From positions 88,173 through 152,172 of the forward strand of contig JASUTE010000004.1 in the NCBI GenBank assembly GCA_030445745.1: a stretch of 64,000 bases of DNA. Direction: 5' to 3'. This stretch comes from Candidatus Cloacimonadota bacterium. Lineage in GTDB: Bacteria; Cloacimonadota; Cloacimonadia; Cloacimonadales; TCS61. Within the stretch, counting starts at the first letter, position 1. Each line of letters starts with the position of its first letter. Positions 1,347-43,116 of the stretch are shown here, in pieces. A program made the translations under genes and the position numbers. Under the pieces are notes generated by a model. The model was not told where the DNA came from. It worked only from the letters and a program-made list of their open reading frames with translations, and searched no databases.

Positions 1347-2121
1347 ATTTTTCTCCTTCTTGTAATATTTTCGAGCTTTCTACTGCTCTGTAAGGGTAAA
1401 AATTCTTGTTTTCTGGCTTTATCGCTTCAGTGGGGCAAAAACTAAGACAGCGCATACACATTTGGCACTCATCTTCGAACTCGGGATAATGATCCATAGT
1501 GATGTTATCTACTGGACATAATTTGTAGCAAAGTCCGCATTTTATGCACTTGGTAGTGTCTATATCAAATTCATATTTATTTCGTAGGAGATCCAAAAAT
1601 TTTTCACTTTGTGATATTTTTTTCATAGGATTGGGTAGGGGAAGATGAGGCCACTTACTAATGCCGAAAGTGATATCGTGGGCAAATTTACGAGCTTTAT
1701 TAATCCCTTTCTCTTGCAGTTTTTCAACTTTGGGTGCTGGTTTTTTTAGGTTCATATTATGTGGCATTTTTATCTCTTTAGCACCAATGGGACGATAGCC
1801 CTTCTTTTTTAGAAGCCTGTAAACAGCACTTTTTAAACTACTACTAAAAATTGCCATGGTATCCACCATGAAAGCATCTTGCGGTTCTGCGATAGTGGGA
1901 ATATCTTCCAAAAATTCCCAGATAAATTTAAAGGTGGATTGCATAATTACAGGAAAAGCCAAACCTAGTAAATTATCTGGATTTATTTGGTCTGCTTCCG
2001 ATTTTTCTATACGAAAAAGATCAACTTTATAACCATGTGTTTCAAAGAAGTCTTTCATCTCTTTTACCACAAGGTAGGTGTTTCCAGTACCCGAAAAGTA
2101 ATAAAAATCTAATTTTTTCAT
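1339..2121 (-). CDS. EFR1-type flavodoxin-like domain fused to a 2x[4Fe-4S] ferredoxin domain
   Basis: The N-terminus YYFSGTGNTYLVVKEM is a flavodoxin-like signature. The C-terminus carries CIKCGLCYKLCP and CQMCMRCLSFCP motifs. Start overlaps... rather, its stop region overlaps the serpin start by 8 nt. Confidence 0.75.
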   Translation of the reverse strand: MKKLDFYYFSGTGNTYLVVKEMKDFFETHGYKVDLFRIEKSEADQINPDNLLGLAFPVIMQSTFKFIWEFLEDIPTIAEPQDAFMVDTMAIFSSSLKSAVYRLLKKKGYRPIGAKEIKMPHNMNLKKPAPKVEKLQEKGINKARKFAHDITFGISKWPHLPLPNPMKKISQSEKFLDLLRNKYEFDIDTTKCIKCGLCYKLCPVDNITMDHYPEFEDECQMCMRCLSFCPTEAIKPENKNFYPYRAVESSKILQEGEKYV

Positions 2122-3182
2122 GTTCTCCCCTCACTAAATTTTTTTTCTAATTCAAAAAAAGTATGGTTTTCTGTAGGTGTGCCTACAGAGACCCGCAGAT
2201 AGTTTTTCAATATTGGATGAGCGCTTATATCACGCACGGCAATTTCGTTTTCTTGTAAATATTGGAAAAGTGAAGTGCTGTTTTCTCCAGCAGTGAAAGC
2301 CAGAAAGTTGGTAGAAGAGGGTTCTACCTTTATACCATCAAGTTGGCGTAAGCTTTCATACATTTCATTACGTAATTTAATTACGTTTTGGGTATGCTGT
2401 AAGAATATTTCTCTAAAATCAAGTATAGTATCAGCAAAAGTTTGTGTTAACAAACTTAAATTGAATGCTGTTATCACCTTTTTTAGCTGTTGTATATTTT
2501 GCTGATTGGAAATAGCATAGCCAAAGCGTAAGCCGGCAGCAGAAAAAGATTTTGAAAATGAACGTACTAAAATTAGGTTAGGAAACCGTTCCACATAATT
2601 TTGCAAAGTTGCACCTGAAAATTCAAAATAAGTTTCATCAACTAGCACCAATTTATTGCATTTTTCAATTATATACAGTAGTTTTTGTTTAGGAAACAAA
2701 TTACCAGTAGGATTATTAGGATTGCACAATATAGCTAATTTACAATTAGTATGGTTGCACATTTCTAAAAACTTATCTGGATTAAAATCAAAATTTTTAT
2801 CTAAGTGCAAAAATTTTATCTGCATTCCCACTGCGGAAGTATAGCTCTTGTAGTCGAAATAGGAGGGTGACAGAGAAACGGCATAATCTTCCGAACTATT
2901 GCGCACGGCTGTAAAAATATAGTAGAGCATCTCATCGGCGCCATTGCCTAAAACCAGGTTTTGAGTGTTTGTCCCAACATAGTTTGCCAGTTTCTTTTTC
3001 AAACTGCTACTAATAGGATTAAAATAACGGTTCAAATGTACATTTTGCATCTTTTTTAAAAAGGCATCTTTAATTACTGAAAAAGGGTCCAGCGTGCTTT
3101 CGTTCAAGCACATCATCGTTTTTTTGCGGGGGACTTTTATCTCTACTGCTTTTTTATTTTGCAGATCATTTCTAAAAAACAT
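2118..3182 (-). CDS. hisC: histidinol-phosphate aminotransferase (class II PLP aminotransferase)
   Basis: Contains NPNNPTG, the PLP-lysine motif SFSKSFSAAGLRFGY and the C-terminal YLRVSVGT. The true start may be the internal MM (MMCLNESTLDP). 4-nt overlap with the downstream gene. Confidence 0.8.
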   Translation of the reverse strand: MFFRNDLQNKKAVEIKVPRKKTMMCLNESTLDPFSVIKDAFLKKMQNVHLNRYFNPISSSLKKKLANYVGTNTQNLVLGNGADEMLYYIFTAVRNSSEDYAVSLSPSYFDYKSYTSAVGMQIKFLHLDKNFDFNPDKFLEMCNHTNCKLAILCNPNNPTGNLFPKQKLLYIIEKCNKLVLVDETYFEFSGATLQNYVERFPNLILVRSFSKSFSAAGLRFGYAISNQQNIQQLKKVITAFNLSLLTQTFADTILDFREIFLQHTQNVIKLRNEMYESLRQLDGIKVEPSSTNFLAFTAGENSTSLFQYLQENEIAVRDISAHPILKNYLRVSVGTPTENHTFFELEKKFSEGRT

Positions 3183-16913: not shown

Positions 16914-17480
16914 ATGAAAATAGTCAGAACAGTTATGATCTTGGTGCTAGTATTGCTTTCTGTAGCAGCATTAGCCGAACTAAAAGGAAAGGATTTTGTG
17001 GAGAAGGGTGAACTGCAAGAATTTAGCGGAAACCTAATAAAGACTGATGAAGAGTGGTCTTTACAGACAGAAGAAGCCACTTTTGATTTGCATTTTGGCC
17101 CACAGGAATATCTGCAGAGCAAAGAAGTTGTGCTGCAAGAAGATACAGAAATAAATTTAACGGGCTATTTGTATAAAAAAAATATTGCCGTTGTTAAGTT
17201 TGTTTACTATGATGTTAATGTGGTTTTGCGAAGCGATAAAGGTGATCCACTTTGGCATGGCACAAAATATGCCAAAAAACATGATAAGCATTACGTGGAT
17301 TCCAGCAAATGCATTGGCTGCAAACTTTGTGTTAGTGCCTGCCCCACAGGTGCTATTAGCATGAAAGATGGCAAAGCTGTTATCGATCCGGACAAATGTA
17401 TAAACTGTGGTATTTGTATAAATGGAAATGGTCAGGGGTTTTCCGGTTGTCCGGTAAAGGCTATAAACAAGAATGAATAA
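16914..17480 (+). CDS. signal-peptide protein with an unknown N-terminal domain and a C-terminal 2x[4Fe-4S]-type ferredoxin module
   Basis: Sec signal MKIVRTVMILVLVLLSVAALA. Cys motifs CIGCKLCVSACP and CINCGIC(x9)CP. GGAGGA RBS sits 6 nt upstream of the start. Confidence 0.7.
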   Translation: MKIVRTVMILVLVLLSVAALAELKGKDFVEKGELQEFSGNLIKTDEEWSLQTEEATFDLHFGPQEYLQSKEVVLQEDTEINLTGYLYKKNIAVVKFVYYDVNVVLRSDKGDPLWHGTKYAKKHDKHYVDSSKCIGCKLCVSACPTGAISMKDGKAVIDPDKCINCGICINGNGQGFSGCPVKAINKNE

Positions 17481-18261
17481 ACGAGATAAAATTCGTTTTT
17501 TTAGTCAGCTTTTTTTCCTAATAGTATCGTTAACGCTCTTAGTTTTGCTAATTTTAGGATTTCTAGGAGTATCGCACTCTTACTGTCCATTTGCCAGTGT
17601 TTGTTTTGGAATTCTGGGGCTTAGTCCTGCAGTTTCGGTTTGGTTGTTTAAAACAGCTGCTATTGTAGGAATTCTAATAGCTTTCAGTACGGTCTTTTGG
17701 GGAAGAAAGTTTTGCGGTTATATATGTTTCTTGGGCACACTTCAGGAATTTATTTACAATTTGAACTGCAGCCGGAAAAAGTATTGTCGGAAACTGTCTT
17801 ATAAAACTCATTTAATTTTAAGAGTGTTAAAGTATCTGGTACTTATCTTTACAGCAGTGACTGCTTTCTTGGCTCTACAGTATCTATATATGAAATTTTG
17901 TCCAGTGTATGCATTAGCTCATCCCCAAAACATTAGCTTAGCAGCAGTATTTACTTTAATTGTGATATTTGTTTTGGGAGTGTGGGTCGAAAGATTTTGG
18001 TGCAGATATTTGTGCCCTTATGCAGCATTGATGAATCTATTCCAATATATGGGTAAATTGCTGGGAATTAAAAGACAGAAAATTAGAAGAAATATTGAAG
18101 CAAGCGTGAATTGTAAAACTTGTTCAAATTATTGTCCAATGGGCATAAAAATTGAATGTAAAGAGGAGATAAGTAATATTAACTGCATACATTGTGGTCG
18201 TTGTGTTAGAAAATGTTTGAAAGACAATTTCTCTAAAGAACAGTGTTTATACAGAGATTAA
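17473..18261 (+). CDS. polytopic membrane 4Fe-4S-binding protein (NapH/MauN/NosR-type polyferredoxin)
   Basis: Multiple TM helices. Family-typical motifs RKFCGYICFLG and RFWCRYLCPYAAL, plus C-terminal CKTCSNYCP and CIHCGRCVRKC. 8-nt overlap with the upstream gene. Confidence 0.7.
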   Translation: MNKRDKIRFFSQLFFLIVSLTLLVLLILGFLGVSHSYCPFASVCFGILGLSPAVSVWLFKTAAIVGILIAFSTVFWGRKFCGYICFLGTLQEFIYNLNCSRKKYCRKLSYKTHLILRVLKYLVLIFTAVTAFLALQYLYMKFCPVYALAHPQNISLAAVFTLIVIFVLGVWVERFWCRYLCPYAALMNLFQYMGKLLGIKRQKIRRNIEASVNCKTCSNYCPMGIKIECKEEISNINCIHCGRCVRKCLKDNFSKEQCLYRD

Positions 18262-18264
18262 ATT

Positions 18265-19230
18265 ATGAAAAAGATACTCATATTTTTAGCGATTTTAAGT
18301 TTATTCGCTTGTGATGATTCTATTTCCAAGCTTAGTCTAGATAATACAGCTCCTAACCCGGTTTCTAATTTGCAAATATTAGAAACGGGAGGAGATTATG
18401 TGAAGTTGATATGGAGTGTACCAGATTCCAAAGATGCTGCTTTTTACAAAATTTATAAAAAATTAAGTACGGAAACAGAGACTATTACCAACTTTATTTT
18501 TACCGATCAACTTCAAGTTAACTTACAAAACACTCAGCAGGGTATAATTATAGACAGCTTAGCTTTCAGCAATAATTACGATTTTGCCGTTTCGGTGTGC
18601 GATGAAAGCATGAATGAGAGCGAATTACAAAAAATAACAGGTATTGAAACGCTTAACAATAATCCTGTTGACACAACACCTCCAGGTGATATTGCACAGC
18701 TGCAGTTGGTACCTACATTTTCGGAAGGCTATGAGATAATTGACGTAGTTATAACAGCTTCTTTTGTTGCACCAGGCGATGATGGCGATAACGGTATAAC
18801 CGAGATTGAAGTAAGATATTCACCATTTGGACCAGTTAATTCAGATAACTGGCAAACCGCTTTTCCTTATCAGGGTACAGTTTTTAGTGGTATTGCTGGA
18901 GAAACCACAATAATTGAACTTCCCTTGAAAAAATGTATGGCTCCCCCTCCCGTTCCACCCAATTATGCTTTTTATTTTGCTGCCAGAGCTATTGATGAAG
19001 CAGGAAATACTTCGGCTATCAAGAGTTTTTCTGGTAAAATAACCGCAGAAGTTATCCGTAAAAGCTGTATTTCTTGTTGGGAATGTTTAGATATTTGCCC
19101 GGAAAATGCTATCTCCAAACAAAACGGAAAGGCTTCTATCGATTTGAGCAAATGTGTGCGCTGTGGCGATTGTATTTTAACCTGTGAAGAAAAAGGTAAT
19201 GAAGCAATAAAATATTATATAACAGAATAA
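18265..19230 (+). CDS. lipoprotein with FN3-like domains and a C-terminal 2x[4Fe-4S]-type ferredoxin module
   Basis: Lipobox LSLFAC. FN3-like signatures (PNPVSNLQILETGGDYVKLIWSVP; DTTPPGDIAQLQL). Cys motifs CISCWECLDICP and CVRCGDCILTC. Confidence 0.65.
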   Translation: MKKILIFLAILSLFACDDSISKLSLDNTAPNPVSNLQILETGGDYVKLIWSVPDSKDAAFYKIYKKLSTETETITNFIFTDQLQVNLQNTQQGIIIDSLAFSNNYDFAVSVCDESMNESELQKITGIETLNNNPVDTTPPGDIAQLQLVPTFSEGYEIIDVVITASFVAPGDDGDNGITEIEVRYSPFGPVNSDNWQTAFPYQGTVFSGIAGETTIIELPLKKCMAPPPVPPNYAFYFAARAIDEAGNTSAIKSFSGKITAEVIRKSCISCWECLDICPENAISKQNGKASIDLSKCVRCGDCILTCEEKGNEAIKYYITE

Positions 19231-19247
19231 AAGAGAGGTAGGAGAAG

Positions 19248-19787
19248 ATGAAAAAGAAAATAATTTACGCGATAATTTTGCTGTTTGTAATGGCCGTAAC
19301 ACTATATGCTGCTAGGGTTATCTATCAAATAGACCCCGATCAGTGTAATGGTTGTGGTGAGTGTTTTGTACAATGTCCCAATGATGCTATCTATTATGAT
19401 TATGAAGTATGGACTTATCAGATCAATCCAGAATTATGTGATGGTTGCGGAGATTGTGTAGATACTTGTAATCATAATGCTATTCATGAAGTTGTTAGCA
19501 ATGGCAGTGAAGAGATCGATCCTAATTTAAAGATATCTTGTTTCCCCAATCCACTTAGCTCTAATACAACTATTTCTTATGATATGCACAACGGGCAAAA
19601 AGGAGAAATAGTTATCTTTAACATCAAAGGCAGAAAAATTCGTTCTTTTCCAATAGAAAGCCGTACTGGCCAGGTCAGCTGGGATGGAAAGGATAGAGCT
19701 GGCAATGAAGTTGCAGAAGGTATTTATTTCTATAAATTGAAAACCGGCAATAGAAAAGTGATAAAAAGACTAACTGTAATAAAATGA
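19248..19787 (+). CDS. signal-peptide ferredoxin module fused to a T9SS-type C-terminal sorting domain
   Basis: Signal MKKKIIYAIILLFVMAVTLYA. Cys motifs CNGCGECFVQCP and CDGCGDCVDTC. The C-terminal ~85 aa (CFPNPLSSNTTISY...GIYFYKLKTGNRKVIKRLTVIK) match the por_secre_tail / FlgD-Ig-like pattern. Confidence 0.7.
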   Translation: MKKKIIYAIILLFVMAVTLYAARVIYQIDPDQCNGCGECFVQCPNDAIYYDYEVWTYQINPELCDGCGDCVDTCNHNAIHEVVSNGSEEIDPNLKISCFPNPLSSNTTISYDMHNGQKGEIVIFNIKGRKIRSFPIESRTGQVSWDGKDRAGNEVAEGIYFYKLKTGNRKVIKRLTVIK

Positions 19788-20026
19788 AAAAAATTAATAT
19801 AATTTTAGTTTTAGTGCTGCTGCTCATTATTTCGTGTGCAGCAGCCTCTGCTGCTTATCGAGTAAATACAAACGACTGTGTAGGTTGTAATGATTGTGTT
19901 AAAGTGTGTCCTGTAAATGCGATCTCTATCGAAGATGGAAAAGCTTATATAGACCAGGAGAAATGCATCAAATGTGGGTTGTGTTATAAAACCTGTACTT
20001 ACGAAGTTATTAGGAAATCAAAATGA
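19784..20026 (+). CDS. small (80 aa) signal-peptide/lipoprotein 2x[4Fe-4S]-type ferredoxin
   Basis: MKKINIILVLVLLLIISCAAASA followed by CVGCNDCVKVCP and CIKCGLCYKTC. ATGA overlap on both sides. Confidence 0.65.
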   Translation: MKKINIILVLVLLLIISCAAASAAYRVNTNDCVGCNDCVKVCPVNAISIEDGKAYIDQEKCIKCGLCYKTCTYEVIRKSK

Positions 20027-20265
20027 GAAAAATTGCTATTCTATTCTTGCTAATTGTTCTGATAGCTGTTTGGGGTTGTGAAAAAGTTAGCAATCCCCAA
20101 TATCATGTAGATAAAGAATCGTGTAATGCTTGCGGAGAATGTTTAATTGTATGTCCCGTAGACGCTATTGAATTCGACGCAGATGGTAAAGCTGTGATCG
20201 ACCAAACCAAATGTAACCAATGTGGCAAATGTATAAATGTTTGCCCTCAGGATGCGATATACTAA
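20023..20265 (+). CDS. small (80 aa) lipoprotein-type 2x[4Fe-4S]-type ferredoxin
   Basis: MRKIAILFLLIVLIAVWGC lipobox, then CNACGECLIVCP and CNQCGKCINVCP. Confidence 0.65.
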   Translation: MRKIAILFLLIVLIAVWGCEKVSNPQYHVDKESCNACGECLIVCPVDAIEFDADGKAVIDQTKCNQCGKCINVCPQDAIY

Positions 20266-21461
20266 TGAAAAAATTGTTTTTATTGCTTATAGTTTTATAT
20301 GCTGTAACCGTACAAGCTCAGCTATCCAGTTATACCGATATCAGTTTTCGCTATATTAATACCGATTCCAGTAGTGAATTTTTTACCGATCCCAATGATT
20401 CAGAGGTGAAAAAGGCTAGTGGCTACTCGGGTATGGATTGGGAATATCATCTTAACTACAAGTTCAACAAAAATTTATTTCTTACATGGAATAATCAGCT
20501 TTTTTATTCTGAAGTATCGTCAGAGTTACGCAATTCCTTCCTATACGATAAAAGCCGCTTGAGTATAGGTTTTCGAAATTCTGTTCACAAACTTTCACTT
20601 TTTCTGAATAACAGGTTTTATGGAGATGATGATACCACGATCTCGAATATTGCCGGCTTAGATACTTTGATTAAAAAAAGAGCCACCTTTGCTTATGGCT
20701 TAAACTATGAGCTGAATTTCGGGAAACTAGAATTTGCTACTTCCGGTTACTATAGAAATTTGCGCTACTTAGAATACACAACCAGTCAAAATGAATGGGA
20801 AAATGATCTCTACTTAGCTAGTAAGCTCGGTTACCAGATTATACCACACTGGCAAATTTTCACCAATTTCTACTATAAAGATGACCTAAACCAGGTGGAT
20901 TGGTACGACCAGACTAAATGGGGGGCAGGAGTTGCCTACGAAAATAGATTTGACTTTTTCAACTCTGTAGAAGCAGTGGTGAATTATTTTCATAGCGAAA
21001 CAGATGAGTTGCCCCAATATCAGAATGACTATCTTTTCACCAAAGTTCGCTATTTCAAAAGATTTGGCACAACTTTCAGTAGCTTTATAACTTATATAAA
21101 TCGTAGTACCTACAACACTTCCCAAGAAAAACTCTTGCGGATCTCTAATTTAATAAGACTGCAGGCAAAATATATTTATCAAGAAGGCAGAGCAGAATCT
21201 TCTTATCTACTGTTTTCCGGAAAATATAATCCAGAGAATTCTGGCAGTAAGTTACGCTTGGGTGTGAACCAGCATTTATTTAAAGACCTCTATTTTGGTA
21301 TAGCTGGTGAGTATGCACCAGACCTGTACAATGGTTATGAAGGAGAATTCCGATATTTACTTAGCGGATTTCGCTATCTCTACCTGCGCTATCAACTGCG
21401 GGATTACCAGGATTTTGTTGGTACTCAGAAGATTCAGGCAGGCCTTTCTTACCAGTTTTAA
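20265..21461 (+). CDS. predicted outer-membrane beta-barrel protein, family unknown
   Basis: I place the start at the ATG in the TAATG overlap at 20265 (MKKLFLLLIVLYAVTVQA signal peptide). The track start at 20220 lies inside the upstream gene. The protein is Tyr/Asn/Gly-rich with an alternating strand pattern and a C-terminal ...AGLSYQF, typical of an OMP beta-signal. Confidence 0.55.
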   Translation: MKKLFLLLIVLYAVTVQAQLSSYTDISFRYINTDSSSEFFTDPNDSEVKKASGYSGMDWEYHLNYKFNKNLFLTWNNQLFYSEVSSELRNSFLYDKSRLSIGFRNSVHKLSLFLNNRFYGDDDTTISNIAGLDTLIKKRATFAYGLNYELNFGKLEFATSGYYRNLRYLEYTTSQNEWENDLYLASKLGYQIIPHWQIFTNFYYKDDLNQVDWYDQTKWGAGVAYENRFDFFNSVEAVVNYFHSETDELPQYQNDYLFTKVRYFKRFGTTFSSFITYINRSTYNTSQEKLLRISNLIRLQAKYIYQEGRAESSYLLFSGKYNPENSGSKLRLGVNQHLFKDLYFGIAGEYAPDLYNGYEGEFRYLLSGFRYLYLRYQLRDYQDFVGTQKIQAGLSYQF

Positions 21462-21536: not shown

Positions 21537-21965
21537 ATGAAAAAAGAAGAAGCTATTTTTCGTGATTTTTTGAAAACAAAGGGGCTAAAATTAACTAAAC
21601 CCCGTCGCATTATCCTGAATGCGGTCTTCAGCACACACGAGCATTTTAATGTGGATGCACTTTACGATATTATCCGTAAAAGACATAAAAATGTATCGCG
21701 GGCAACCATCTACAGAACTATGCCGCTTATGATAGAAGCAGGTCTTATAAAACAAGCTTTACGATGTCAGGCAAAAGACCACTACGAACATATTTTTGGC
21801 CATAAAAGTCATCTACATTTTATCTGCGATAAATGTGGAAAAATAGTTGAAAAAGAGAGTAAACAAGTTGAAAAAATAATAAAAGATCTAGCAGAAACTG
21901 AAGGATTTGAAATACGTGAATTCAATGTTGGTGCTAAAGGTTTGTGTGCAGATTGCCGCAGTTAA
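21537..21965 (+). CDS. fur: Fur family transcriptional regulator
   Basis: 142 aa with a winged-helix N-terminus (RATIYRT), metal-site H..H.HFICDKCGK..., and the C-terminal CADC pair. Confidence 0.85.
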   Translation: MKKEEAIFRDFLKTKGLKLTKPRRIILNAVFSTHEHFNVDALYDIIRKRHKNVSRATIYRTMPLMIEAGLIKQALRCQAKDHYEHIFGHKSHLHFICDKCGKIVEKESKQVEKIIKDLAETEGFEIREFNVGAKGLCADCRS

Positions 21966-21981
21966 AAATTTAGACTGTATC

Positions 21982-21999
21982 TGAGAATGAATTGCAAAA
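21982..21999 (+). promoter_or_regulatory. Fur-box-like operator, copy 2, 22 nt upstream of the feoB start
   Basis: TGAGAATGAATTGCAAAA, matching copies 1 and 3 at 15-16 of 18 positions. Confidence 0.6.
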
Positions 22000-22020
22000 T
22001 CAAATAGTTGAGAGGTTAAC

Positions 22021-24258
22021 TTGAAAAAATATACAATAGCATTAGCAGGAAATCCCAATTGTGGTAAAACTACCCTGTTCAACGCTTTTACCGGTTCCAA
22101 ACAAAGGGTAGGCAACTGGCCAGGTGTAACTGTAGAAAAAATTATCGGTAACTATAAATATAAAGATGCTGAATATGAAATTATCGACTTGCCTGGAATA
22201 TATTCCTTTTCAGCACATTCGATGGACGAAACAGTATCCCGAGAGTTTATCTTGATGGAGAAACCAGACTTAGTAGTGAACATTATAGATGCTACTAACC
22301 TGGAAAGAACACTCTATCTTACTACCCAGCTTCTGGAAATGAAGATTCCAGTTATTATCGCGCTGAATATGATGGATATGGCTAAACAGCGGCGGATAAA
22401 GATAGAGCTGGATCATTTAGCCAAGCACCTTGATACAAAAATAATATCTATTGTAGCACCCAAAAAACAAGGTCTGGATGAATTAAAACAACAAATTGCT
22501 GAAAGTGTAGAAAAACAACATATTCCTCATACCCAGGTGGAATACGATTCCGTGGTAGAAACAGCTATAAATGAGATAGCTCCGCAGTTAGATAAATATG
22601 CCAAAAAATATCAAGTAGATAAACGCTGGCTAGCTATCAAACTGTTGGAAGAGGACAAGTTAGCTGCTCAGCTTACCAATTCCGACTTAGCAGATCTAGT
22701 AAATCAGCAGATCCAGAAAATAGAAAAACATACTAATAACGATGTGGAAATTGTAATTGCAGATGGACGCTATGGTTTTATTCATGGATTAACTTTGGAT
22801 GTGGTTCATAAAGCTGGTGATGCTCGGCGTAATTTTTCCGATCTGGTAGATAGTATCGTATTAAATCGTGTTTTGAGCATTCCCATATTTTTGGGAGTGA
22901 TGTATCTGGTATTTATGCTAACAATAAATGTGGGTTCTCCCTTCATAGATTTTTTTGATAATTTAATGGGCACTATTTTTGTGGATGGTACAGAGTACTT
23001 TTTACAAAGTCTTAATGCTCCAGCATGGCTTATTTTACTACTGGCACAAGCTTTAGGAGGTAGCATTCAAACAATTTCCACCTTTATTCCTCCTATTTTC
23101 TTTATGTTTCTATCGCTTTCCATTTTAGAAGATTCGGGTTATATGAGCAGGGCTGCTTTTGTGATGGACAGGTTTATGCGCTTCATTGGCCTCCCGGGAA
23201 AAGCATTTATTCCAATGTTGGTGGGTTTCGGTTGCAATGTTCCAGCAATAATGGCAACCAGGACACTGGAAAATAAAAAAGATAGACTCTTAACTATTCT
23301 AATTAACCCATTAATGTCCTGCGGTGCCAGATTACCTGTTTATACACTTTTCGCAGCAGTATTTTTCCCTGAACATGGAGGACAGGTAATTTTTGCACTC
23401 TATCTCACTGGTATTGTCTTAGCTATAATATTCGGGCTAATTTTCAAGAAAACTCTTTTCAAAGGCGAAACTTCTACATTTGTTATGGAACTATCACCTT
23501 ATCACCTACCAACTTTCAACGGAATTATGTTACATACCTGGCAACGTCTGAAAGGTTTTATCATCAGAGCTGGGAAAGTAATCGTAATTTTTATAATTAT
23601 ATTAACTGTGTTAAATTCGGTGGGAATAGATGGAAGTTTGGGCAATCAGGATTCAGAGAATTCTGTGTTAAGCTACATTGGGAAAAAGATTAGTCCGATT
23701 TTCCAACCAATGGGAGTACAGCAGAAAAATTGGCCAGCAGTAGTTGGTATGATGACGGGTATTTTTGCTAAAGAAACAGTGGTAGGAACGCTGGATGCAC
23801 TTTATTCGCAACTGGCTGGAGCTCAGCAGCAAGTAGAAGAAGAAACCGGTTACGATTTTACCTCGGGTATAGTTGCTTCTTTTCGGGCTATAGCTACTGG
23901 ATTTGGTATAATAGAAGCTAAAGATGGAGAAACTACTCTACAAAAGGGTGTTACCAGAGAAATGATGAACAGATTTGGTGGAAAGAATAATGCTTTTGCC
24001 TATCTGCTATTTATACTTATTTATGCTCCCTGTGTGGCTGTAATCGGCGCTATTTACAAGGAAACAAACCTGAAATGGACATTTTTTTCTGTTTCCTATT
24101 TAACCATGTTGGCATGGTTGGTAGCCACTTTGTTTTACCAAGTTTCGATAATTGCGATACAACCTGCTGTAAGTTTGGGTTGGATTCTGGGAATTAGCTT
24201 GATTTTCTTTGGATTCTATAAAACACTACAAAAGATAAAACCAGGTGAAACTTTTTGA
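22021..24258 (+). CDS. feoB: ferrous iron transporter FeoB
   Basis: TTG start preceded by a GAGAGG RBS. N-terminal G-domain GNPNCGKTTLFN...DLPG, followed by the polytopic FeoB permease domain. 745 aa. Confidence 0.93.
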   Translation: MKKYTIALAGNPNCGKTTLFNAFTGSKQRVGNWPGVTVEKIIGNYKYKDAEYEIIDLPGIYSFSAHSMDETVSREFILMEKPDLVVNIIDATNLERTLYLTTQLLEMKIPVIIALNMMDMAKQRRIKIELDHLAKHLDTKIISIVAPKKQGLDELKQQIAESVEKQHIPHTQVEYDSVVETAINEIAPQLDKYAKKYQVDKRWLAIKLLEEDKLAAQLTNSDLADLVNQQIQKIEKHTNNDVEIVIADGRYGFIHGLTLDVVHKAGDARRNFSDLVDSIVLNRVLSIPIFLGVMYLVFMLTINVGSPFIDFFDNLMGTIFVDGTEYFLQSLNAPAWLILLLAQALGGSIQTISTFIPPIFFMFLSLSILEDSGYMSRAAFVMDRFMRFIGLPGKAFIPMLVGFGCNVPAIMATRTLENKKDRLLTILINPLMSCGARLPVYTLFAAVFFPEHGGQVIFALYLTGIVLAIIFGLIFKKTLFKGETSTFVMELSPYHLPTFNGIMLHTWQRLKGFIIRAGKVIVIFIIILTVLNSVGIDGSLGNQDSENSVLSYIGKKISPIFQPMGVQQKNWPAVVGMMTGIFAKETVVGTLDALYSQLAGAQQQVEEETGYDFTSGIVASFRAIATGFGIIEAKDGETTLQKGVTREMMNRFGGKNNAFAYLLFILIYAPCVAVIGAIYKETNLKWTFFSVSYLTMLAWLVATLFYQVSIIAIQPAVSLGWILGISLIFFGFYKTLQKIKPGETF

Positions 24259-24273
24259 GAATGATTTGCAAAA
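24256..24273 (+). promoter_or_regulatory. Fur-box-like operator, copy 3, overlapping the feoB stop codon and 41 nt upstream of feoA
   Basis: TGAGAATGATTTGCAAAA. The TGA at 24256-24258 is the feoB stop. Confidence 0.55.
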
Positions 24274-24314
24274 AATCTAAAAATAAATAGTTTTTAAAAT
24301 AAAAAGGATAAAAA

Positions 24315-24608
24315 TTGTTTGGAAGAAAAAAAAGACGAAGAGCTAAAGGGAAACGTTGTAAAAATCATCCGCAGTGCAACCGTGGGAGCAATAATAATAG
24401 ATTTTTAAATCTGTGTGAAGCCGAAGTTGGTAGAAAATATGTGGTAGTGGATAATCCAGATCACAAAATAATGGAGATGGGTGTTTTTAATGGCTGTGTT
24501 ATCACTGTACACAAAAATAACCCAAGTGATAGTAATATAATTATAGCGGTAGGTGAATCTCGGTTCATAATTCCCAAGCCAACTGCTTGCCGCATTTTGA
24601 TACGCTAA
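24315..24608 (+). CDS. feoA: FeoA-domain protein with a basic, Cys/His-containing N-terminal extension
   Basis: TTG start with an AAGGA RBS. The C-terminal ~65 aa match the FeoA SH3-like pattern (L..CEAEVGRKYVVV...MEMGVFNGCVITV...IIIAVGESRFII....A..ILI). The N-terminus is MFGRKKRRRAKGKRCKNHPQC. Confidence 0.75.
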   Translation: MFGRKKRRRAKGKRCKNHPQCNRGSNNNRFLNLCEAEVGRKYVVVDNPDHKIMEMGVFNGCVITVHKNNPSDSNIIIAVGESRFIIPKPTACRILIR

Positions 24609-24609
24609 A

Positions 24610-24834
24610 ATGCTCTCGGAAATTATAGAATATTTTCACCAAAAAAAAGTATTAAGTATTTCAGAAATAGCTACTTGGTTAAATTCTAACGAAGAAGCAG
24701 TAGAGGGAATGTTGCAAATACTGTTGCGTAAGAAAATGATAAAGCCGTGGAGACCTGCGTGTAAAAGCTGTAGCTCCTCCTGTGCTTCCTGTAATTTGGT
24801 GAAAACAAAATATTACCAGTGGATTTCTGCTTGA
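24610..24834 (+). CDS. feoC: FeoC-like winged-helix protein with a Cys-rich tail
   Basis: 74 aa. The pattern MLSEIIEYFHQKKVLSISEIATWLNSNEEAVEGMLQILLRKKMI is FeoC-like, followed by CKSCSSSCASC. Confidence 0.6.
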   Translation: MLSEIIEYFHQKKVLSISEIATWLNSNEEAVEGMLQILLRKKMIKPWRPACKSCSSSCASCNLVKTKYYQWISA

Positions 24835-28722: not shown

Positions 28723-29544
28723 CTAACATTTTCTCTTTTTCCTTTTTAAAAATAGCGAAATGAAATAAGCCATACCGCTTAAGATGATTATAGTAGCTCC
28801 AGTTGGTAGGTTAGCTGAATACGAAAGCACAATGCCACTTCCAGTGAATATAATTCCCAATACTGCAGCTATTAACATCATTGTTGCTGGGCTTCTGCTG
28901 AAAAGAAATGCGATAGCAGCGGGTAGAGTTAAAAGTGCTATCACCAATATTATGCCAACAATTTGAATTAGTACCACTATAGTAAGTGCAATTAGAATAA
29001 GTAGAAAGATGTAAAGTAAATTAACCTTCAAACCGCTGATACGTGCATATTTTTCATCAAAAGCGATTGCTATAAACTGACGATAGAAGACAAAAATGCT
29101 GCCAATAATTACTAAATTCAAAATTAACAGGACCCATAAATCGGAACGTGTAACTAACAAAATATTTCCAAATAGGTAGGTCATCAAATCGCTTTTATAA
29201 CCAGGAGTAAGATACATGAAGATTAGTCCTAAAGCCATACCAACAGCCCACAAAGCTCCAATCACTGTATCTTCGTGCTGTGCTCCTTTTAGCTTTATAA
29301 GTCCAATAATTACAGCAGCCAAGATGGCGAATACAAAGGCACCGATAAGGGGCTCGATTCCCAAATAATAAGCAATGCCTATACCACCTAAAACAGTATG
29401 TGCAATACCGCCGCTGATAAATGTGATGCGTTTTATAATGACAAAAGTACCAGTAATTCCACAGACTATGCTAGCCAGAATACCTGCTATGATGGCATTT
29501 TGCAAAAAAGCATGATTTAAAAACGAGTAGAAAAATTCTGCCAT
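28723..29544 (-). CDS. znuB: zinc/manganese ABC transporter permease
   Basis: 273-aa polytopic ABC-3 family permease, positioned in the znuA-znuC-znuB series. Confidence 0.85.
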   Translation of the reverse strand: MAEFFYSFLNHAFLQNAIIAGILASIVCGITGTFVIIKRITFISGGIAHTVLGGIGIAYYLGIEPLIGAFVFAILAAVIIGLIKLKGAQHEDTVIGALWAVGMALGLIFMYLTPGYKSDLMTYLFGNILLVTRSDLWVLLILNLVIIGSIFVFYRQFIAIAFDEKYARISGLKVNLLYIFLLILIALTIVVLIQIVGIILVIALLTLPAAIAFLFSRSPATMMLIAAVLGIIFTGSGIVLSYSANLPTGATIIILSGMAYFISLFLKRKKRKC

Positions 29545-29553
29545 AAAATCTCC

Positions 29554-30285
29554 TTACAAATTACAACCGTGTTCCAAAGCTTTTATAGAACCCATATAAG
29601 CTTGTTGCAGTTTTTCACCTTTAATATCTTTCGTATAATGCGTGCAACTACGCACATTTAAACAGGTTACTTTGTTTACATAGGAAGAAACAAAAGCGAT
29701 GTCGTGAGAAACAAGTAAAATAGTAGTATTTTTGTTTAATTCTTCCAAGGTGTCGTAGATATCTTTTTCTATGGAAGAATCGATAGAGGCGGTGGGTTCA
29801 TCCAGCAGCAAAATTTTGGGATCTGTCATTAGAGCACGGGCAATAAGGGTACGCTGTTTCTGTCCGCCGGAAAGTTCACCCAGCCTTTTTTCAGCTATAT
29901 TTTCTATTTGGAGTTTTTTCAAGAGAGCAATTGCTTTTTTTTGTGCACGTTGTGGGTATTTAGGAAAGAAAGAATTGTTTTGTAAACAGCTCATCATTAC
30001 TACTTCTTTTACTTTAATGGGAAAATCGGAATCGAATTGGGCATATTGTGGTACATATCCTATATGACGACGTGCTTTTTGTGGGGTAGTACCTAAAATT
30101 TCTATCTTACCGCTATCTGGTTGCAAAAAGCCCAAAATTATTTTCAGTAAAGTTGTTTTGCCGCCTCCGTTTGGACCCAAAATAGCCATAAAATCATTTT
30201 CTTCTACTTCCAAATTGATATTTTTCAAGGAAGGTTGAAAGTCATAGCTATAAGATAGATTTTCTATTTTTATTATTTTATTCAT
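29554..30285 (-). CDS. znuC: zinc ABC transporter ATP-binding protein
   Basis: Walker A GPNGGGKTT, signature LSGGQKQR, Walker B LLLDEP. Confidence 0.88.
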   Translation of the reverse strand: MNKIIKIENLSYSYDFQPSLKNINLEVEENDFMAILGPNGGGKTTLLKIILGFLQPDSGKIEILGTTPQKARRHIGYVPQYAQFDSDFPIKVKEVVMMSCLQNNSFFPKYPQRAQKKAIALLKKLQIENIAEKRLGELSGGQKQRTLIARALMTDPKILLLDEPTASIDSSIEKDIYDTLEELNKNTTILLVSHDIAFVSSYVNKVTCLNVRSCTHYTKDIKGEKLQQAYMGSIKALEHGCNL

Positions 30286-31147
30286 TCAATGCCTTTCTCA
30301 GTTGTTGTGCTACCTGTAGTAAATTTTCGGAATAATTAGGTGCTAAGGGATCGATAGAGACCGCTGTGCCACCTATTTGTTCTGCTATCGATTTAGCAAT
30401 AGCTCTGTTAAACTGCTTTTGTATGAAAATGGTTTTTATTTGGTGCTGGTTTGCGAAATCTATTATAGCAGCTAACTCCTTGGAATTTGGGGATTTTCCT
30501 TCCATTTCAATAGGTATTTGGGTTAAATCAAACTCTTCAGCAAAGTAGCCCCAAGAGGGGTGAAAAACCAAAAATTTTCGATTAGGTAGATCTTTTAAAA
30601 TTATGGCAATTTGTTCATGCAGGTTTTGTAGTTCATTTTGGAAACTGCTTAAGTTATTCTGTATTTTTTGTTTATGGTTAGGAAATTGTTTCACAAGCTC
30701 ATTAGCTATATTCTCAGCTTGTTTTTTTACCAAGAGTGGGCTAAGCCAAATATGCGGATCTTGGGTATGTGAAGCGTGATGCTGTTTTGTATCAGCAAGC
30801 AAGTGAGTTTGCATATCTCGCAGTTTGATACCAGCGCGGGTATCAACAATTTTAAGATTGGGATTGGTTTGTTTTATTTTTGGCAGCCAGGCTTTTTCGA
30901 AAGGAACCCCAATTCTGAAAAAAAGAAGCGCATCTGCTAGTTTAGCCATTTGTTTGGGGGTTACTTCATAGGTAGCAGGGTTTGCACCAGGTTGCACCAT
31001 TACCTCTATCTCTACCAAATCTTGTGCCAACTTCTCTACAAAATATTTTTGGGGTAAAATACTAACGAAAACTGTATTTTGGGCATTTTGTGTACTACAG
31101 GAAAATAGAATACCAAATAACACTACTATCAAGCATATTTTCTTCAC
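30278..31147 (-). CDS. znuA: zinc ABC transporter substrate-binding lipoprotein (cluster A-I, ZnuA type)
   Basis: Lipobox ILFSC. TroA/ZnuA fold pattern (DPHIWLSP) plus the His-rich loop HLLADTKQHHASHTQDPH typical of Zn-specific ZnuA. Confidence 0.85.
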   Translation of the reverse strand: MKKICLIVVLFGILFSCSTQNAQNTVFVSILPQKYFVEKLAQDLVEIEVMVQPGANPATYEVTPKQMAKLADALLFFRIGVPFEKAWLPKIKQTNPNLKIVDTRAGIKLRDMQTHLLADTKQHHASHTQDPHIWLSPLLVKKQAENIANELVKQFPNHKQKIQNNLSSFQNELQNLHEQIAIILKDLPNRKFLVFHPSWGYFAEEFDLTQIPIEMEGKSPNSKELAAIIDFANQHQIKTIFIQKQFNRAIAKSIAEQIGGTAVSIDPLAPNYSENLLQVAQQLRKALNE

Positions 31148-36738: not shown

Positions 36739-37395
36739 TTAAAATCTATAATTAAATGTAAGCAGCGGGTTCAGCTGTTTGTTTACTTTTACTTTAACAT
36801 CTACTTCAGTTTGGAGTGCACTTATTCGTAGAGAATTTATAACACTAATAATATGATTTGCTACTATTGCTCCGCTAAAAACCTTGGCGTAATCATCGAA
36901 TTCAAGGCTTCTTTTTTGCAAAATTTTATAATCATGTTGGCGCTCATCAGATTCCCATTTCCAAAAATGAGATTCTGAATAGATATGTTCATCAATAAAT
37001 TGCTGTCGTTCCTCCGGATCTTCAATACTTTCAGCCTGTAGGATGATATTGGCATTGTATCCGCCGGTTTCAAAACCGTAGCTATCATAGTTTTTCAAAT
37101 CGATCCAGAAATCTTGGCTATAATTACCTTGGGGATCTACGTCAGCGTAACGATAAGCGTAATCGTGTGCTGCAGATATTTTCAGGTCAGATTCTTGGGC
37201 AAAGTAGAGTTGCGCCGACCAAAGCAGTATTTCGGAAGCAATAAAAGCGTAACCAGTATTATTGCCCATGGAAATTTCGCCCCAACCTGGCAATATAGCC
37301 GATTTCAAGACATTTATTTTACTATGTTGAGCAGTTAAATTAGTTGTAAATAACAGTAAAAGGGTAATGATGAGTAATTTAGAAATTAATTTCAT
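36739..37395 (-). CDS. envelope protein, paralog 3 of a tandem triplet (PGxG-helix family, DUF5683-like)
   Basis: Signal peptide, ILPGWGEISMGN...EILLWSAQLY, an acidic/aromatic middle (FWKWESDERQHDY), ANHIISVINSLR, and a C-terminal ...LLTFNYRF. Confidence 0.5.
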   Translation of the reverse strand: MKLISKLLIITLLLLFTTNLTAQHSKINVLKSAILPGWGEISMGNNTGYAFIASEILLWSAQLYFAQESDLKISAAHDYAYRYADVDPQGNYSQDFWIDLKNYDSYGFETGGYNANIILQAESIEDPEERQQFIDEHIYSESHFWKWESDERQHDYKILQKRSLEFDDYAKVFSGAIVANHIISVINSLRISALQTEVDVKVKVNKQLNPLLTFNYRF

Positions 37396-38038
37396 ATGAA
37401 ACCTGCATTCCTTTTTTTTGTAAATCTGGTTTTACAGAAAGATTGTTCAGCTTTTCTTTCACATAATTACTGGTAACCATAGCATCGATGGTGGAAACGA
37501 TTCGATTTAGAATAGCTGCTGCAATGGCAAAATTGGCATATATTTCCAAATCTTGTTTTTCGCGCCGCAAATCTTTATATTTTTGCCAATCTTGCGTATT
37601 TTCCCAGTTCCAATTATTTTCTTCAGGTAGCAAATTATTGTTCAAGTAAGTTTCGTAAGCATCCTTATCTTCCAAACCTATCAAAAAATAATTACGTGCA
37701 GTTTGGATGACATCGTTGTTATAATCTTCTAAACTCATATAATCTTGAGCTTTTTGGTAGATAAAATCAGGGCTGTCGGAGTTTAGACCGGCATTATTTT
37801 GGGCAAATTGCTGGTAGGTGTTTATTTTCCAGTTTTTCTCAGCATCTAAGCGCAGATAGGAAAGAATGATAGCTAGTTCTGCACCTAAATAGATGCCACC
37901 TTTGTTGTAGTCTTTTAAATAAAGATGACCACTTCCAGGCACTGCCAGCGAAAATAAAGCTGCTTTGCCAGTGGAAACCTGTGCCAAGGATACAGAACAT
38001 AAACTTAGTAGAATTAAGATAATAAGAAATTTACGCAT
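37379..38038 (-). CDS. envelope protein, paralog 2 of the tandem triplet
   Basis: Signal peptide, AVPGSGHLYLKDYNKGG...AELAIILSYL, WNWENTQDWQKY, LNRIVSTIDAMV, and a C-terminal ...QVSYEINF. Confidence 0.5.
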   Translation of the reverse strand: MRKFLIILILLSLCSVSLAQVSTGKAALFSLAVPGSGHLYLKDYNKGGIYLGAELAIILSYLRLDAEKNWKINTYQQFAQNNAGLNSDSPDFIYQKAQDYMSLEDYNNDVIQTARNYFLIGLEDKDAYETYLNNNLLPEENNWNWENTQDWQKYKDLRREKQDLEIYANFAIAAAILNRIVSTIDAMVTSNYVKEKLNNLSVKPDLQKKGMQVSYEINF

Positions 38039-41900: not shown

Positions 41901-42067
41901 GATTTTGCTAAGATCTCTCTTTTACCAACACCAGAAAATTCTGTTTCCAGTGGATGCACATTTTTTTCCTCTATTTGAGGATATGATATTTTTTGCAGCT
42001 TCATTTTCTCAGCTATTGCTAACTGAGAAAACAGCAGCAGACAAAATATTAAGCTGAAACGCTTCAT
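38924..42067 (-). CDS. M6 (immune inhibitor A-like) family metalloprotease with a T9SS-type C-terminal sorting domain
   Basis: 1047 aa with a signal peptide and the zinc motif VMAHEFGHSLGFVDLY. The C-terminal ~80 aa (AFAFPNPAKKGEF...SGVYFAVISSRGETQKVPIAIIK) fit the por_secre_tail pattern. TAATG overlap with the upstream gene. Confidence 0.8.
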   Translation of the reverse strand: MKRFSLIFCLLLFSQLAIAEKMKLQKISYPQIEEKNVHPLETEFSGVGKREILAKSRNFENLLVLLVQFQPDTTSTTTGNGQFVQDTTGYQPSLGKPPHNYQFFSDQLTSLRYYYKAVSFGNFNLNYDIFPVSKSGEFNAYTLPHKLSYYSPGTSDQQLMVSRFEEYFADCFHIADQTSPQIDFSQYDHFMLIHAGSDWQHDVLGNSPNDMPSFFITMGDGKEVYVDDGTVMIDYACNVPETITQDIEQYETNSMPIVYNYGVINAVMAHEFGHSLGFVDLYNTYNHRPEVGYWDIMDSGGAGLSGVVQDTDGDGQDDKLFYIEGVLPTLPSVWTRLLVWENEFQQERIYKNASDLTFDEEIILEPVEKKLTENCENPYFVKIPLGNEEYLLLENRQVDSDGDGGTSVVTTSGNRVALYPCRFDDPYDQPTYEYDYLLPGWQKSTGEAVGGGIVVWHIDQKILYENNNFANNSVNTSHSNRAVKIIEADNLPDIGNAYSQYWRGTAYEPYHRYLPELSSDGYFLNWDINYAAGQTLPTFNDELSSTSEPALQLNSGQNSIYRVYDIGSCSLQADQTRTISFKLGTQYFQNTSKIAEYDFLQAIGPVGNIYDFPTFPVVEDNKVELFSIINNTVANHLQWEEEYTGELTQPITVGRKSPNNEFYLVANNKLTIVSDEYISENEYPTEITSPPLYLPEISQKVVATAEILYIGESQFDLPAAKLAYNNSQLIAVTDNVVNFIDIENRQITHQINLPHSTANYEPVCYNDTLNAANSAVFIQDEQANIYKLSGNDYERIFTAENWGNEASQLALGKLTDENQVYITFGIRDRVFALTLDGTLLEGFPAYVENKNILANSFPEIINFAQATMIVLSTDNDASIAIDNLGNQHPEFSISNSEFTNKHSYFWQGSQKNLFYFHQDSNHNLFASRKDSVQVNPLVWQGYRNNYSGLYEAFIDMPISETENLAAFAFPNPAKKGEFRIKVKNAKADIKIKIFDIAGHKIYSDNIEKNDGNSKDIWFSTDKFSSGVYFAVISSRGETQKVPIAIIK

Positions 42068-43116
42068 TAAAATTCTAATTTAGCAGAGAAAGTTTTGTTA
42101 TAGTCTGTCATTTCACCAGCCGGCTGCATGGCAAAGTCAATTGATAACTTGTATTTTCCCGAAAATGCATAATGAATACCGCCACCAAAAGAGAAGCCGT
42201 CGATAGCACCAGCCTCATCGTAGATGTAACCTGTTCTTAAGGAAAGAAGATCCAAATATACATATTCTGCACCACAGTTGTAGATAGGAGCATCACCGCC
42301 CCAAGCTGTAAATAGTCTCTGGTAAAAAGCATCATCATTATCGGTTGCTAGCACTTTATTAAAATCGGCATTAATGGTGAATTTGTTCATCTGTGTCTCT
42401 AGAACTCGGTAGGAAATTCCCATTCTCCAGTTCATAGGCAATTGGTCCGATTGAGATTCATTGATATAGGTGATGTTTGGGCCCACATTTTGCAAGTTCA
42501 AGCCAGCATCAAGTCCTCTGAGGAAAAGGTCTTTTCTTTTTACACCAAAGTCGAAAGCATAACTCATTCCACGTCCTTTTACCCCAGATTCTGTTTCTCC
42601 TTGTCCTTCTGGTGCAAGGTCACTGTAGATGAATTTAAAAGTAATACCCAAGCCTGTTTTGGGATTTAACTGATAGCCATAGCTAATAGCAGGGGCGGCT
42701 TCCCAACTGCTAAAAGTGCCTTGGTAATTTCCTTCGGAATCGTATTCTTCCTGTTCGCCGTAGGTCATAAAGATCATATTAAAACCTATATTTCCAATAT
42801 TTTCATAATATTTGTTCCACCCGATATATTCATAATACATATCGTTGATATCGGAAACATCACCCAGCCAGTTTGTATGCATCCAGGCAAATTGATTTTT
42901 TCTGTTAAAAGCCATAGCCCCTGGATTCCAATAACCAGCATAAGCATCATCTACTTGTGCCACGTAAGCAGAACCCATAGCTCCAGCACGGGAACTTGGT
43001 TCTATAAGTAAAAAGATAACGGCAGATTGAGATACAGCAGTGGCTGTAGCGGGGATAAGTAATGACAAGATCATTGCGATCAGTATCCATTTAGATTTCA
43101 TAAAATTCCTCCACAA
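42067..43116 (-). CDS. PorV/PorQ-like outer-membrane beta-barrel protein
   Basis: Signal peptide present. The N-terminal motif FLLIEPSSRAGAMGSAYVAQVDDAYAGYWNPGAMAF matches the PorV/PorQ (UPF0164-like) signature. The C-terminal ...FSAKLEF is an OMP beta-signal. Confidence 0.7.
   Translation of the reverse strand: MWRNFMKSKWILIAMILSLLIPATATAVSQSAVIFLLIEPSSRAGAMGSAYVAQVDDAYAGYWNPGAMAFNRKNQFAWMHTNWLGDVSDINDMYYEYIGWNKYYENIGNIGFNMIFMTYGEQEEYDSEGNYQGTFSSWEAAPAISYGYQLNPKTGLGITFKFIYSDLAPEGQGETESGVKGRGMSYAFDFGVKRKDLFLRGLDAGLNLQNVGPNITYINESQSDQLPMNWRMGISYRVLETQMNKFTINADFNKVLATDNDDAFYQRLFTAWGGDAPIYNCGAEYVYLDLLSLRTGYIYDEAGAIDGFSFGGGIHYAFSGKYKLSIDFAMQPAGEMTDYNKTFSAKLEF

Follow-up and report, generated by a model that had tools for sequence, protein, structure and literature searches.

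Why would an iron-sulfur (Fe-S) protein carry a domain that sorts secreted cargo to the cell surface? The question is raised by gene D (19248-19787), which lies in a 64,000-nucleotide stretch of DNA (the window) from a Candidatus Cloacimonadota bacterium (GenBank assembly GCA_030445745.1, contig JASUTE010000004.1). A first-pass annotation, made from the sequence letters, had proposed that D joins a two-cluster ferredoxin to a type IX secretion system (T9SS) C-terminal sorting domain (CTD). By every testable criterion of sequence and structure D is both a genuine ferredoxin-domain protein and a genuine T9SS type-A CTD protein, and the fusion is real, conserved and under purifying selection. On the fusion the annotation was right; it did not include the operon context (five exported ferredoxins, a barrel and a membrane redox module), nor the point that these ferredoxins carry general secretory (Sec) rather than twin-arginine translocation (Tat) signals.

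The reading frame of D opens at the first start codon past an in-frame stop, with a GGAG ribosome-binding site ahead of it. The predicted signal peptide begins with MKKK, has a 12-residue hydrophobic core (mean Kyte-Doolittle hydropathy 3.07), ends in LYA followed by A, and is without an RR motif. Downstream of it, the CxxCxxCxxxC motif pair that the annotation had noticed lies at residues 33-43 (CNGCGECFVQCP) and 64-74 (CDGCGDCVDTC), and two stretches of D match Pfam Fer4 (PF00037) with 51.9 bits (cutoff 21.1); the dicluster models Fer4_7 (PF12838; 37.9 bits, cutoff 27) and Fer4_10 (42.3 bits, cutoff 25.5) are exceeded as well. D is predicted to be redox active and to bind two [4Fe-4S] clusters. 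Residues 99-177 of the 179 match Por_Secre_tail (PF18962; 39.1 bits, cutoff 27) and NCBIfam TIGR04183 (41.6 bits, cutoff 23), and the hidden Markov model (HMM) comparison with Fer4 and TIGR04183 that had been suggested places both domains above curated cutoffs in one polypeptide. The likeness reported earlier to the C-termini of two other window proteins, one M6-like (38924-42067) and one pullulanase/GH57-like (50476-53748), was also borne out: BLASTP aligns the D CTD with them at E = 1e-5 and 1e-11, both likewise score above the CTD-model cutoffs, and the three domains have PNP, NIKG(R/Q/H), W and G(I/V)YF in common and all end in (I/L)K.

An AlphaFold2 model of D, built on a 16-sequence alignment (mean predicted local distance difference test score, pLDDT, 83.4), begins with a signal helix; residues 24-83 adopt a ferredoxin fold (pLDDT ~84), residues 84-89 are a short disordered linker, and seven strands form a beta-sandwich over 94-177. 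In Foldseek searches of the PDB, the N-terminal domain matched PFOR delta (9bt4_G; root-mean-square deviation, rmsd, 1.6 A over 64 columns) and FwdG (5t5i_G; 1.4 A), with further matches to APS reductase beta and to 7q4w_B (rmsd 2.0 A); model and matches together support a (beta-alpha-beta)2 ferredoxin fold. The best matches of the sandwich were PorZ (5m11), PorU (6za2) and the isolated mirolase CTD (8qb1; template modelling score, TM, 0.65). In P. gingivalis a Gly in the CTD beta3-beta4 loop and the C-terminal strand have a demonstrated role in secretion (PMC11285876). D has both, the Gly as G128, which is invariant in the family, and the strand ending in V/I-I-K; K127 and W145 of the CTD are at least 90% conserved. 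In its Sec signal and C-terminal seven-strand beta-sandwich D is like T9SS type-A cargo (RgpB, mirolase and the PorZ and PorU CTDs). The CTD cargos named so far are peptidases, a deiminase, a haemin-binding protein, adhesins, a chitinase and a cellulase (PMC11285876), whereas the passenger in D is an Fe-S redox protein of ~60 residues. The clostridial-type 2x[4Fe-4S] ferredoxins, PFOR delta, FwdG and APS reductase beta share fold and motifs with D, but those proteins are cytoplasmic.

A chimeric assembly or a frameshift fusion, which the annotation had named as a refutation of its claim, or a decaying open reading frame (ORF) is so remote an explanation that we excluded it, no evidence in its support having been found: D is a single ORF in independent assemblies. 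An identical copy is present on 30 contigs (deposited as MDN5353962.1, 'hypothetical protein [Candidatus Cloacimonadota bacterium]'), and a 96%-identical copy, the only match in a k-mer homolog search, has the same operon around it on JGI contigs of independent origin (twin locus L001). Against a 94%-identical strain, the ratio of nonsynonymous to synonymous polymorphism (pN/pS) is 0.08 for D and 0.02-0.22 across the operon genes compared, A to F (F, 0.02), with G excluded as its two copies differ in length. The confident two-domain structure model and the divergent relatives described below also speak against an artefact.

An exhaustive HMMER search of 1.84 billion representatives gave 16 matches below 1e-30. 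Among full-length relatives of D, each standing for a 50%-identity cluster, Fer4 was found in 27/27 and Por_Secre_tail in 24/27, so that at least 24 protein clusters carry the ferredoxin plus CTD architecture. The fusion, whose taxonomic spread the annotation had thought worth tracing, recurs in distant relatives, and all that can be placed are Cloacimonadota; in reference genomes, scanned with a six-sequence alignment, every full-length relative came from a Cloacimonadota/Cloacimonadales metagenome-assembled genome. Eight of the 27 are long forms with a CarboxypepD_reg spacer, a feature of many T9SS cargos, between ferredoxin and CTD. These long variants have 249-266 residues (P0013, P0019, P0021, P0024, P0027, P0029, P0040 and P0059); P0019 (L019:8001-8789) stands outside any such operon, between an FGE-sulfatase/fn3 protein and a cation diffusion facilitator (CDF) efflux gene, in the one context seen. 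In 16 homologs of D (32-46% identity) seven of the ligand Cys never vary, and the eighth position holds either Cys or Asp. CxxDxxC is a natural variant known in genuine ferredoxins, and selection therefore appears to act on cluster ligation. Three traits set the family apart from cytoplasmic ferredoxins, namely the signal peptide, a conserved YQI(N/D)P strand ahead of each motif, and the secretion or display domain. It is a well-defined and previously unannotated family, deposited as 'hypothetical protein' or 'ferredoxin'. Sec-signal ferredoxins may reach beyond it, given four metagenomic proteins (P0066, P0070, P0123 and P0134) with a Sec-type signal peptide, two ferredoxin domains and low-complexity linkers.

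D stands fourth in an operon of closely packed, co-directional and translationally coupled genes (A to G, 16914-21461; Table 1), whose starts and stops overlap or nearly touch (B overlaps A by 8 nt). A promoter and terminator scan of 15.8-25 kb of the window gave the same counts as shuffled sequence. Five of the seven products (A, C, D, E and F) are ferredoxins with Sec or lipoprotein signals, and proteins A to G have no CxxCH haem motif.

A has a GNGxxFxGCP insertion in its second cluster motif (Fer4, 57.7 bits) and eight Cys that are invariant in 8 orthologs; orthologs stand immediately 5' of D in L003-L008 and L017. In one lineage the A orthologs have a conserved HCGKHFP motif just past the signal peptide, absent from the window copy, which may be a metal site (L003:7459-7992, L004:7456-7989, L006:7461-7994, L007/L008:7446-7979). 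B matches Fer4_5 (PF12801; 49.7 bits, cutoff 22), has no FMN_bind domain, and is a candidate inner-membrane entry point for electrons. C is limited to some lineages, with shorter orthologs in L005, L009 and L022. Orthologs of E, each with a signal peptidase I (SPI)-type signal, occur in all related loci, and in 11/11 orthologs of F the signal peptide ends with a Cys (the lipobox pattern was matched in 10, and the window's own VWGC was judged by eye).

Wherever a locus extends far enough, G follows F. Its AlphaFold2 model, made with database homologs (pLDDT 75.7), has 20 antiparallel strands, and Foldseek likens it to 18-strand Occ/OprD porins and to the 22-strand barrels of TonB-dependent receptors without the plug. 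No Pfam family matched G, and a G profile run against PDB sequences returned nothing at E <= 10.

Table 1. Coordinates of gene D, its parts, its operon and other features of the window
Feature	Coordinates	Strand	Basis and remarks
A: exported protein	16914..17480	+	Sec/SPI signal; N-terminal domain (~100 aa) whose fold is unknown; 2x[4Fe-4S] at the C-terminus
B: NapH/MauN-like polytopic membrane Fe-S protein	17473..18261	+	Two CxxxC(P) motifs and a C-terminal ferredoxin-like motif
C: lipoprotein with beta-rich domains and C-terminal 2x[4Fe-4S]	18265..19230	+	Lipobox LFAC; Fer4_21 38.5 bits, Fer4 30.7 bits
D: signal peptide, 2x[4Fe-4S] ferredoxin, linker and T9SS type-A CTD	19248..19787	+	179 aa
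D residues 1-21: Sec-type signal peptide	19248..19310	+	Heuristic call (sequence inspection and hydrophobicity script); helix at residues 2-19 in model
D residues 24-83: ferredoxin domain	19317..19496	+	Fer4 matches, Foldseek
D residues 93-179: T9SS type-A CTD, seven-strand beta-sandwich	19524..19784	+	HMMs and model
E: 80-aa exported 2x[4Fe-4S] ferredoxin	19784..20026	+	Fer4 57.3 bits; start overlaps D stop (ATGA)
F: 80-aa lipoprotein 2x[4Fe-4S] ferredoxin	20023..20265	+	Lipobox VWGC; Fer4 61.5 bits
G: predicted 20-strand outer-membrane beta-barrel	20268..21461	+	Signal peptide; C-terminal ..LSYQF; AlphaFold2, Foldseek
Fur-family regulator	21537..21965	+	PF01475 94.4 bits; 75-nt gap from G
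FeoB, FeoA, FeoC ferrous-iron uptake	22021..24834	+	FeoB domains in twin L001; FeoA 39.6 bits, FeoC 41.1 bits
PorV/PorQ-family T9SS outer-membrane protein	42067..43116	-	NF033709 223.4 bits (cutoff 90), PF19572 76.3 bits

The order A-D-E-F-G is repeated in divergent Cloacimonadota loci (L003-L009 and L017/L018; 32-47% identity). In these the NapH-like gene is absent, and a DsbD_2 (PF13386) membrane protein, J, follows G instead. J has Cys in helix 1 (CxxxC) and helix 4 (FCP), and its C-terminal ~130 residues have no Cys and no family match; copies of 320-332 residues were seen at L003:10258-11241, L005:10155-11120, L006:10240-11235 and L017:5806-6804. Directly 5' of the L017 operon lies a gene for an 835-residue cytoplasmic oxidoreductase (L017:206-2713) with Fer4_20, Pyr_redox_2, DHO_dh-like and Fer4 domains; it resembles GltD/dihydropyrimidine dehydrogenase and is a possible electron donor. 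A minimal E-F-G set, without A or D, occurs at L011:2282-3944, at L026:7286-8954 (from an organism of markedly higher GC content) and in L027-L030.

A further relative bears on where D works. In Cloacimonadota NIOZ-UU4 the D ortholog (L010:3216-3692, plus strand; 47% identity) keeps the signal peptide and the ferredoxin, and has a type-I dockerin (Dockerin_1, PF00404; 48.6 bits, cutoff 22.9) in place of the CTD. Dockerin-bearing secreted enzymes and a CTD-anchored cohesin scaffoldin have been reported from Cloacimonadota (PMC8542988). Two different modules for extracellular display on the same ferredoxin are a strong argument that it works outside the outer membrane. The extracellular D of the first-pass annotation thereby gains independent support, while the surface location itself is still predicted rather than observed. 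Divergent from the L010 gene, all on the minus strand, are genes for an exported FMN_bind-like protein (2544-3131), Fur (2032-2493) and FeoA (1773-2006); the FMN_bind-like protein, with a TGATMTT motif, scores 20.9 bits (cutoff 22), and L010 is the sole locus with such a neighbour.

The dockerin also bears on a purely periplasmic role, which we consider quite unlikely. D would then stay in the periplasm or at the inner face of the outer membrane, its CTD being uncleaved, non-functional or an Ig-like spacer, and the ferredoxins would serve sulfur or polysulfide reduction, thiol-disulfide maintenance or the scavenging of oxygen and reactive oxygen species, with G as an ordinary substrate porin. 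Consistent with this, FlgD_ig matches the CTD region of D just at its cutoff (27.1 bits against 27), and the operon has no gene for a reductase or an acceptor-specific enzyme. T9SS function in Cloacimonadota has been inferred and not demonstrated (PMC11285876); a T9SS is possible there, since the phylum is listed among those of the Fibrobacterota-Chlorobiota-Bacteroidota (FCB) group that may have one (PMC11285876). The CTD, however, is terminal, passes both T9SS models and has the conserved L-beta3-beta4 Gly, K127, W145 and a hydrophobic-K end; it is of the same subtype as the CTDs of the window's hydrolase cargos, one of which adjoins porV; and its replacement by a dockerin in L010 would make sense only for an extracellular protein. 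The CTD and dockerin evidence makes a role confined to the periplasm less likely.

From the anatomy of the proteins and the synteny of their genes we infer an electron chain and, with it, cluster loading after Sec passage, a surface location for D, a direction of electron flow and an acceptor. The likeliest reading is that D is the outermost, surface-exposed end of a ferredoxin-based trans-envelope chain in Cloacimonadota, and our confidence in this is evenly divided. At the inner membrane, reducing equivalents would be taken in by B in this organism, or by the DsbD_2/CcdA-like thiol relay J in its relatives, and electrons would pass to the soluble periplasmic ferredoxins A and E and the lipoprotein ferredoxins C and F. 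The outer membrane would be crossed at or through the barrel G, and the electrons received by D, itself exported by Sec, folded in the periplasm and carried out by the T9SS by means of its CTD. The E-F-G triad of soluble carrier, lipoprotein carrier and barrel would form the conserved core. NapH-like and DsbD-like proteins have been proposed as membrane modules that feed extracytosolic redox proteins (Meheust et al. 2021, PMC8238504), and the route of CTD cargo is through Sec, periplasmic folding and the translocon (PMC11285876). The acceptor would likely lie outside the cell; candidates are Fe(III) or iron-sulfide minerals, sulfur species and syntrophic partners. Because Fur/Feo genes adjoin the operon in two lineages, reductive iron acquisition is suggested; it is equally possible that electrons are disposed of to minerals, sulfur species or syntrophic partners.

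The same neighbouring genes could instead point to metal handling, which we judge unlikely. The exported Cys-rich ferredoxin-fold proteins would then scavenge iron, FeS clusters or thiophilic metals, either extracellularly or in the periplasm; in the two variants of this idea, iron would be passed via G to FeoB, or the proteins would be a sink for toxic metals, and DsbD_2 or NapH would merely keep thiols reduced. Fur, FeoB, FeoA and FeoC lie directly 3' of the operon in the window and in twin loci, and Fur and FeoA stand beside the L010 version. A P-type ATPase with a CPC motif and a heavy-metal-associated (HMA) domain is encoded immediately 5' of the operon in L003, L004, L006, L007 and L008, the CDF efflux gene follows the stand-alone long variant, a ZnuABC-type system is near in the window, and apoproteins exported by Sec must bind metal outside the cytoplasm. 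Yet the full ferredoxin signature is conserved, including the Pro past the fourth Cys and the switch between Cys and Asp that redox ferredoxins typically show. Five paralogous carriers that differ in how they are anchored (soluble, lipoprotein and T9SS) also look more like a relay than a sponge, and metal genes are not adjacent in L005, L011, L017 and L026. Metal handling and the electron chain overlap in part, in that reductive iron uptake needs both.

A number of points weigh against an electron chain that ends at D. The neighbours vary by lineage: two have Fur/Feo, one has a CPC-type P-type ATPase and others have neither, so that they do not define the electron acceptor. The E. coli Fur-box consensus had no match with three or fewer mismatches in the window, a result uninformative for this phylum, and the PorV/PorQ-family protein is the only T9SS machinery seen within the 64 kb. 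The DsbD_2 superfamily also holds metal transporters, and J may therefore not be an electron carrier. The host organism is uncultured. Sec delivers unfolded apoprotein, every characterised exported Fe-S protein uses Tat, to our knowledge, with clusters inserted in the cytoplasm, and we know of no extracytoplasmic pathway for Fe-S assembly.

This last group of points marks the real oddity of the operon, which is that its exported ferredoxins bear Sec rather than Tat signals. A Tat consensus (S/T-R-R-x-F-L-K) was found neither in A, C, D, E and F nor in their orthologs, and the ORFs are not extendable upstream; one ortholog has MRRNLIV, which is off the consensus. The Rieske protein is an example of an Fe-S protein exported by Tat (PMC3471235). 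With Sec export, clusters would form in the periplasm or outside the cell. As a speculation, Fe2+ and sulfide could combine into clusters spontaneously where the habitat is sulfidic, while the DsbD_2 or NapH module keeps thiols reduced. It is a tentative proposal, and one that we hold more doubtful than the electron chain as such, that Cloacimonadota have a cytochrome-free trans-envelope conduit made wholly of small [4Fe-4S] ferredoxins whose clusters are assembled outside the cytoplasm. The phylum is an anaerobic lineage, in keeping with the strict-anaerobe setting that the annotation had supposed for a surface Fe-S protein. An N-terminal anchor with an RnfB-like cytoplasmic ferredoxin was considered for D and rejected: positive charges stand ahead of its hydrophobic core, its paralogs carry lipoboxes, and neither a CTD nor a dockerin would serve any purpose inside the cytoplasm.

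How does this arrangement compare with known systems? The known electron routes through Gram-negative envelopes use multihaem cytochromes or, in some bacteria, flavinylated proteins. Like Shewanella MtrCAB and Geobacter Pcc (OmaB/OmbB/OmcB), the operon combines a soluble periplasmic carrier (here E) and a barrel (G) with a redox protein that is a lipoprotein or lies at the surface (F, plus D). The roles of MtrA, MtrB and MtrC have been described (PMC3282943); E, F and G would parallel MtrA, MtrC and MtrB, with [4Fe-4S] clusters in place of haems. The differences from porin-cytochrome systems are the absence of CxxCH, a barrel of 20 predicted strands without detectable sequence similarity to Pfam or PDB entries, Sec export, and display by T9SS or dockerin rather than through type II secretion (T2SS). 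The operon may work in the manner of such a conduit, but its membership in the Mtr/porin-cytochrome group was rejected, as multihaem c-type cytochromes are lacking.

DmsB, one subunit of a molybdoenzyme, binds four clusters, acquires its cofactors in the cytoplasm and leaves by Tat followed by T2SS. The DmsEFAB system, an extracellular dimethyl sulfoxide (DMSO)/iodate reductase, is similar in having a ferredoxin-type Fe-S subunit outside the outer membrane together with a barrel; in contrast to DmsB, the ferredoxins described here are stand-alone, Sec-exported and cytochrome-free. In Shewanella DmsAB, the Fe-S subunit DmsB lies on the outer-membrane exterior, DmsF is the barrel, and the decahaem cytochrome DmsE feeds the enzyme (PMC11302344). 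The annotation had called a surface Fe-S protein highly unusual and in doing so overlooked this precedent (PMC11302344).

The systems of Meheust et al. 2021, and NapGH, NosR and PceC, likewise pair a membrane protein, NapH-like (PF12801) or of the DsbD family, with redox proteins that are small and either secreted or lipidated, and the Meheust-type modules swap NapH-like and DsbD-like proteins between lineages as seen here. Their partners, however, are ApbE-flavinylated FMN-binding domains or a Tat-exported NapG, while in this operon Sec-exported ferredoxins take that place. On the NapH equivalog models B falls far short of the cutoffs (TIGR02163, 66.6 bits against 213; NF007013, 52.7 against 234), and a place for it in NapGH was rejected on these scores, on its two-cluster partners with Sec signals, and on the lack of a Tat-exported NapG. 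Full-text literature searches turned up no account of ferredoxins that are secreted or are linked to a T9SS or a dockerin.

Several other parts of the window touch on metals, secretion or Fe-S proteins. A ZnuA/ABC-3/ABC_tran (ZnuABC-type) metal uptake system lies on the minus strand at 28723-31147, beyond RecG, SIMPL and metallophosphoesterase genes; with the Fur and Feo genes (21537-24834) it makes up a metal-homeostasis neighbourhood. The PorV/PorQ-family protein stays below the PorV equivalog cutoff (144.8 against 250). Its gene, the adjacent gene for the M6-like CTD protein of 1047 residues (38924-42067), two DUF5683 genes and an unassigned 218-residue ORF (36739-43116, minus strand) may form a T9SS-linked operon; against the NCBIfam model 'T9SS-dependent M6-like inactivated metalloprotease' the CTD protein scores 221.9 bits (cutoff 600). 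At 1339-2121 (minus strand) is encoded an apparently cytoplasmic protein of 260 residues, flavodoxin-like at its N-terminus (MKKLDFYYFSGTGNT) and with a 2x[4Fe-4S] region at its C-terminus, which may belong to the EFR1-type ferredoxin family. A surface-polysaccharide cluster at 55379-63491 (plus strand; GC 28% against 35-40% elsewhere), with genes for Wzz, a Wzy_C/O-antigen-ligase-like protein, a flippase, two GT1/GT4 glycosyltransferases and a heparinase II/III-like protein, could be relevant to the lipopolysaccharide (LPS) anchoring of T9SS cargo.

Even on the most ordinary reading, D defines a previously unannotated protein family. An operon of ferredoxins that are Sec-exported, lipid-anchored and displayed by T9SS or dockerin, with a barrel of its own, challenges the views that electrons take cytochrome routes through the envelope and that exported Fe-S proteins require Tat. 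A conduit of this kind with extracytoplasmic maturation, if true, would be a new class of extracellular electron transfer and the first case of Fe-S protein maturation outside the cytoplasm, and the range of T9SS cargo would widen from hydrolases and adhesins to redox proteins. Cloacimonadota are abundant syntrophic, fermentative anaerobes of digesters and anoxic waters, and the operon would then provide a gene set for how cytochrome-poor syntrophs shed electrons or obtain iron from sulfidic, iron-sulfide-rich habitats.

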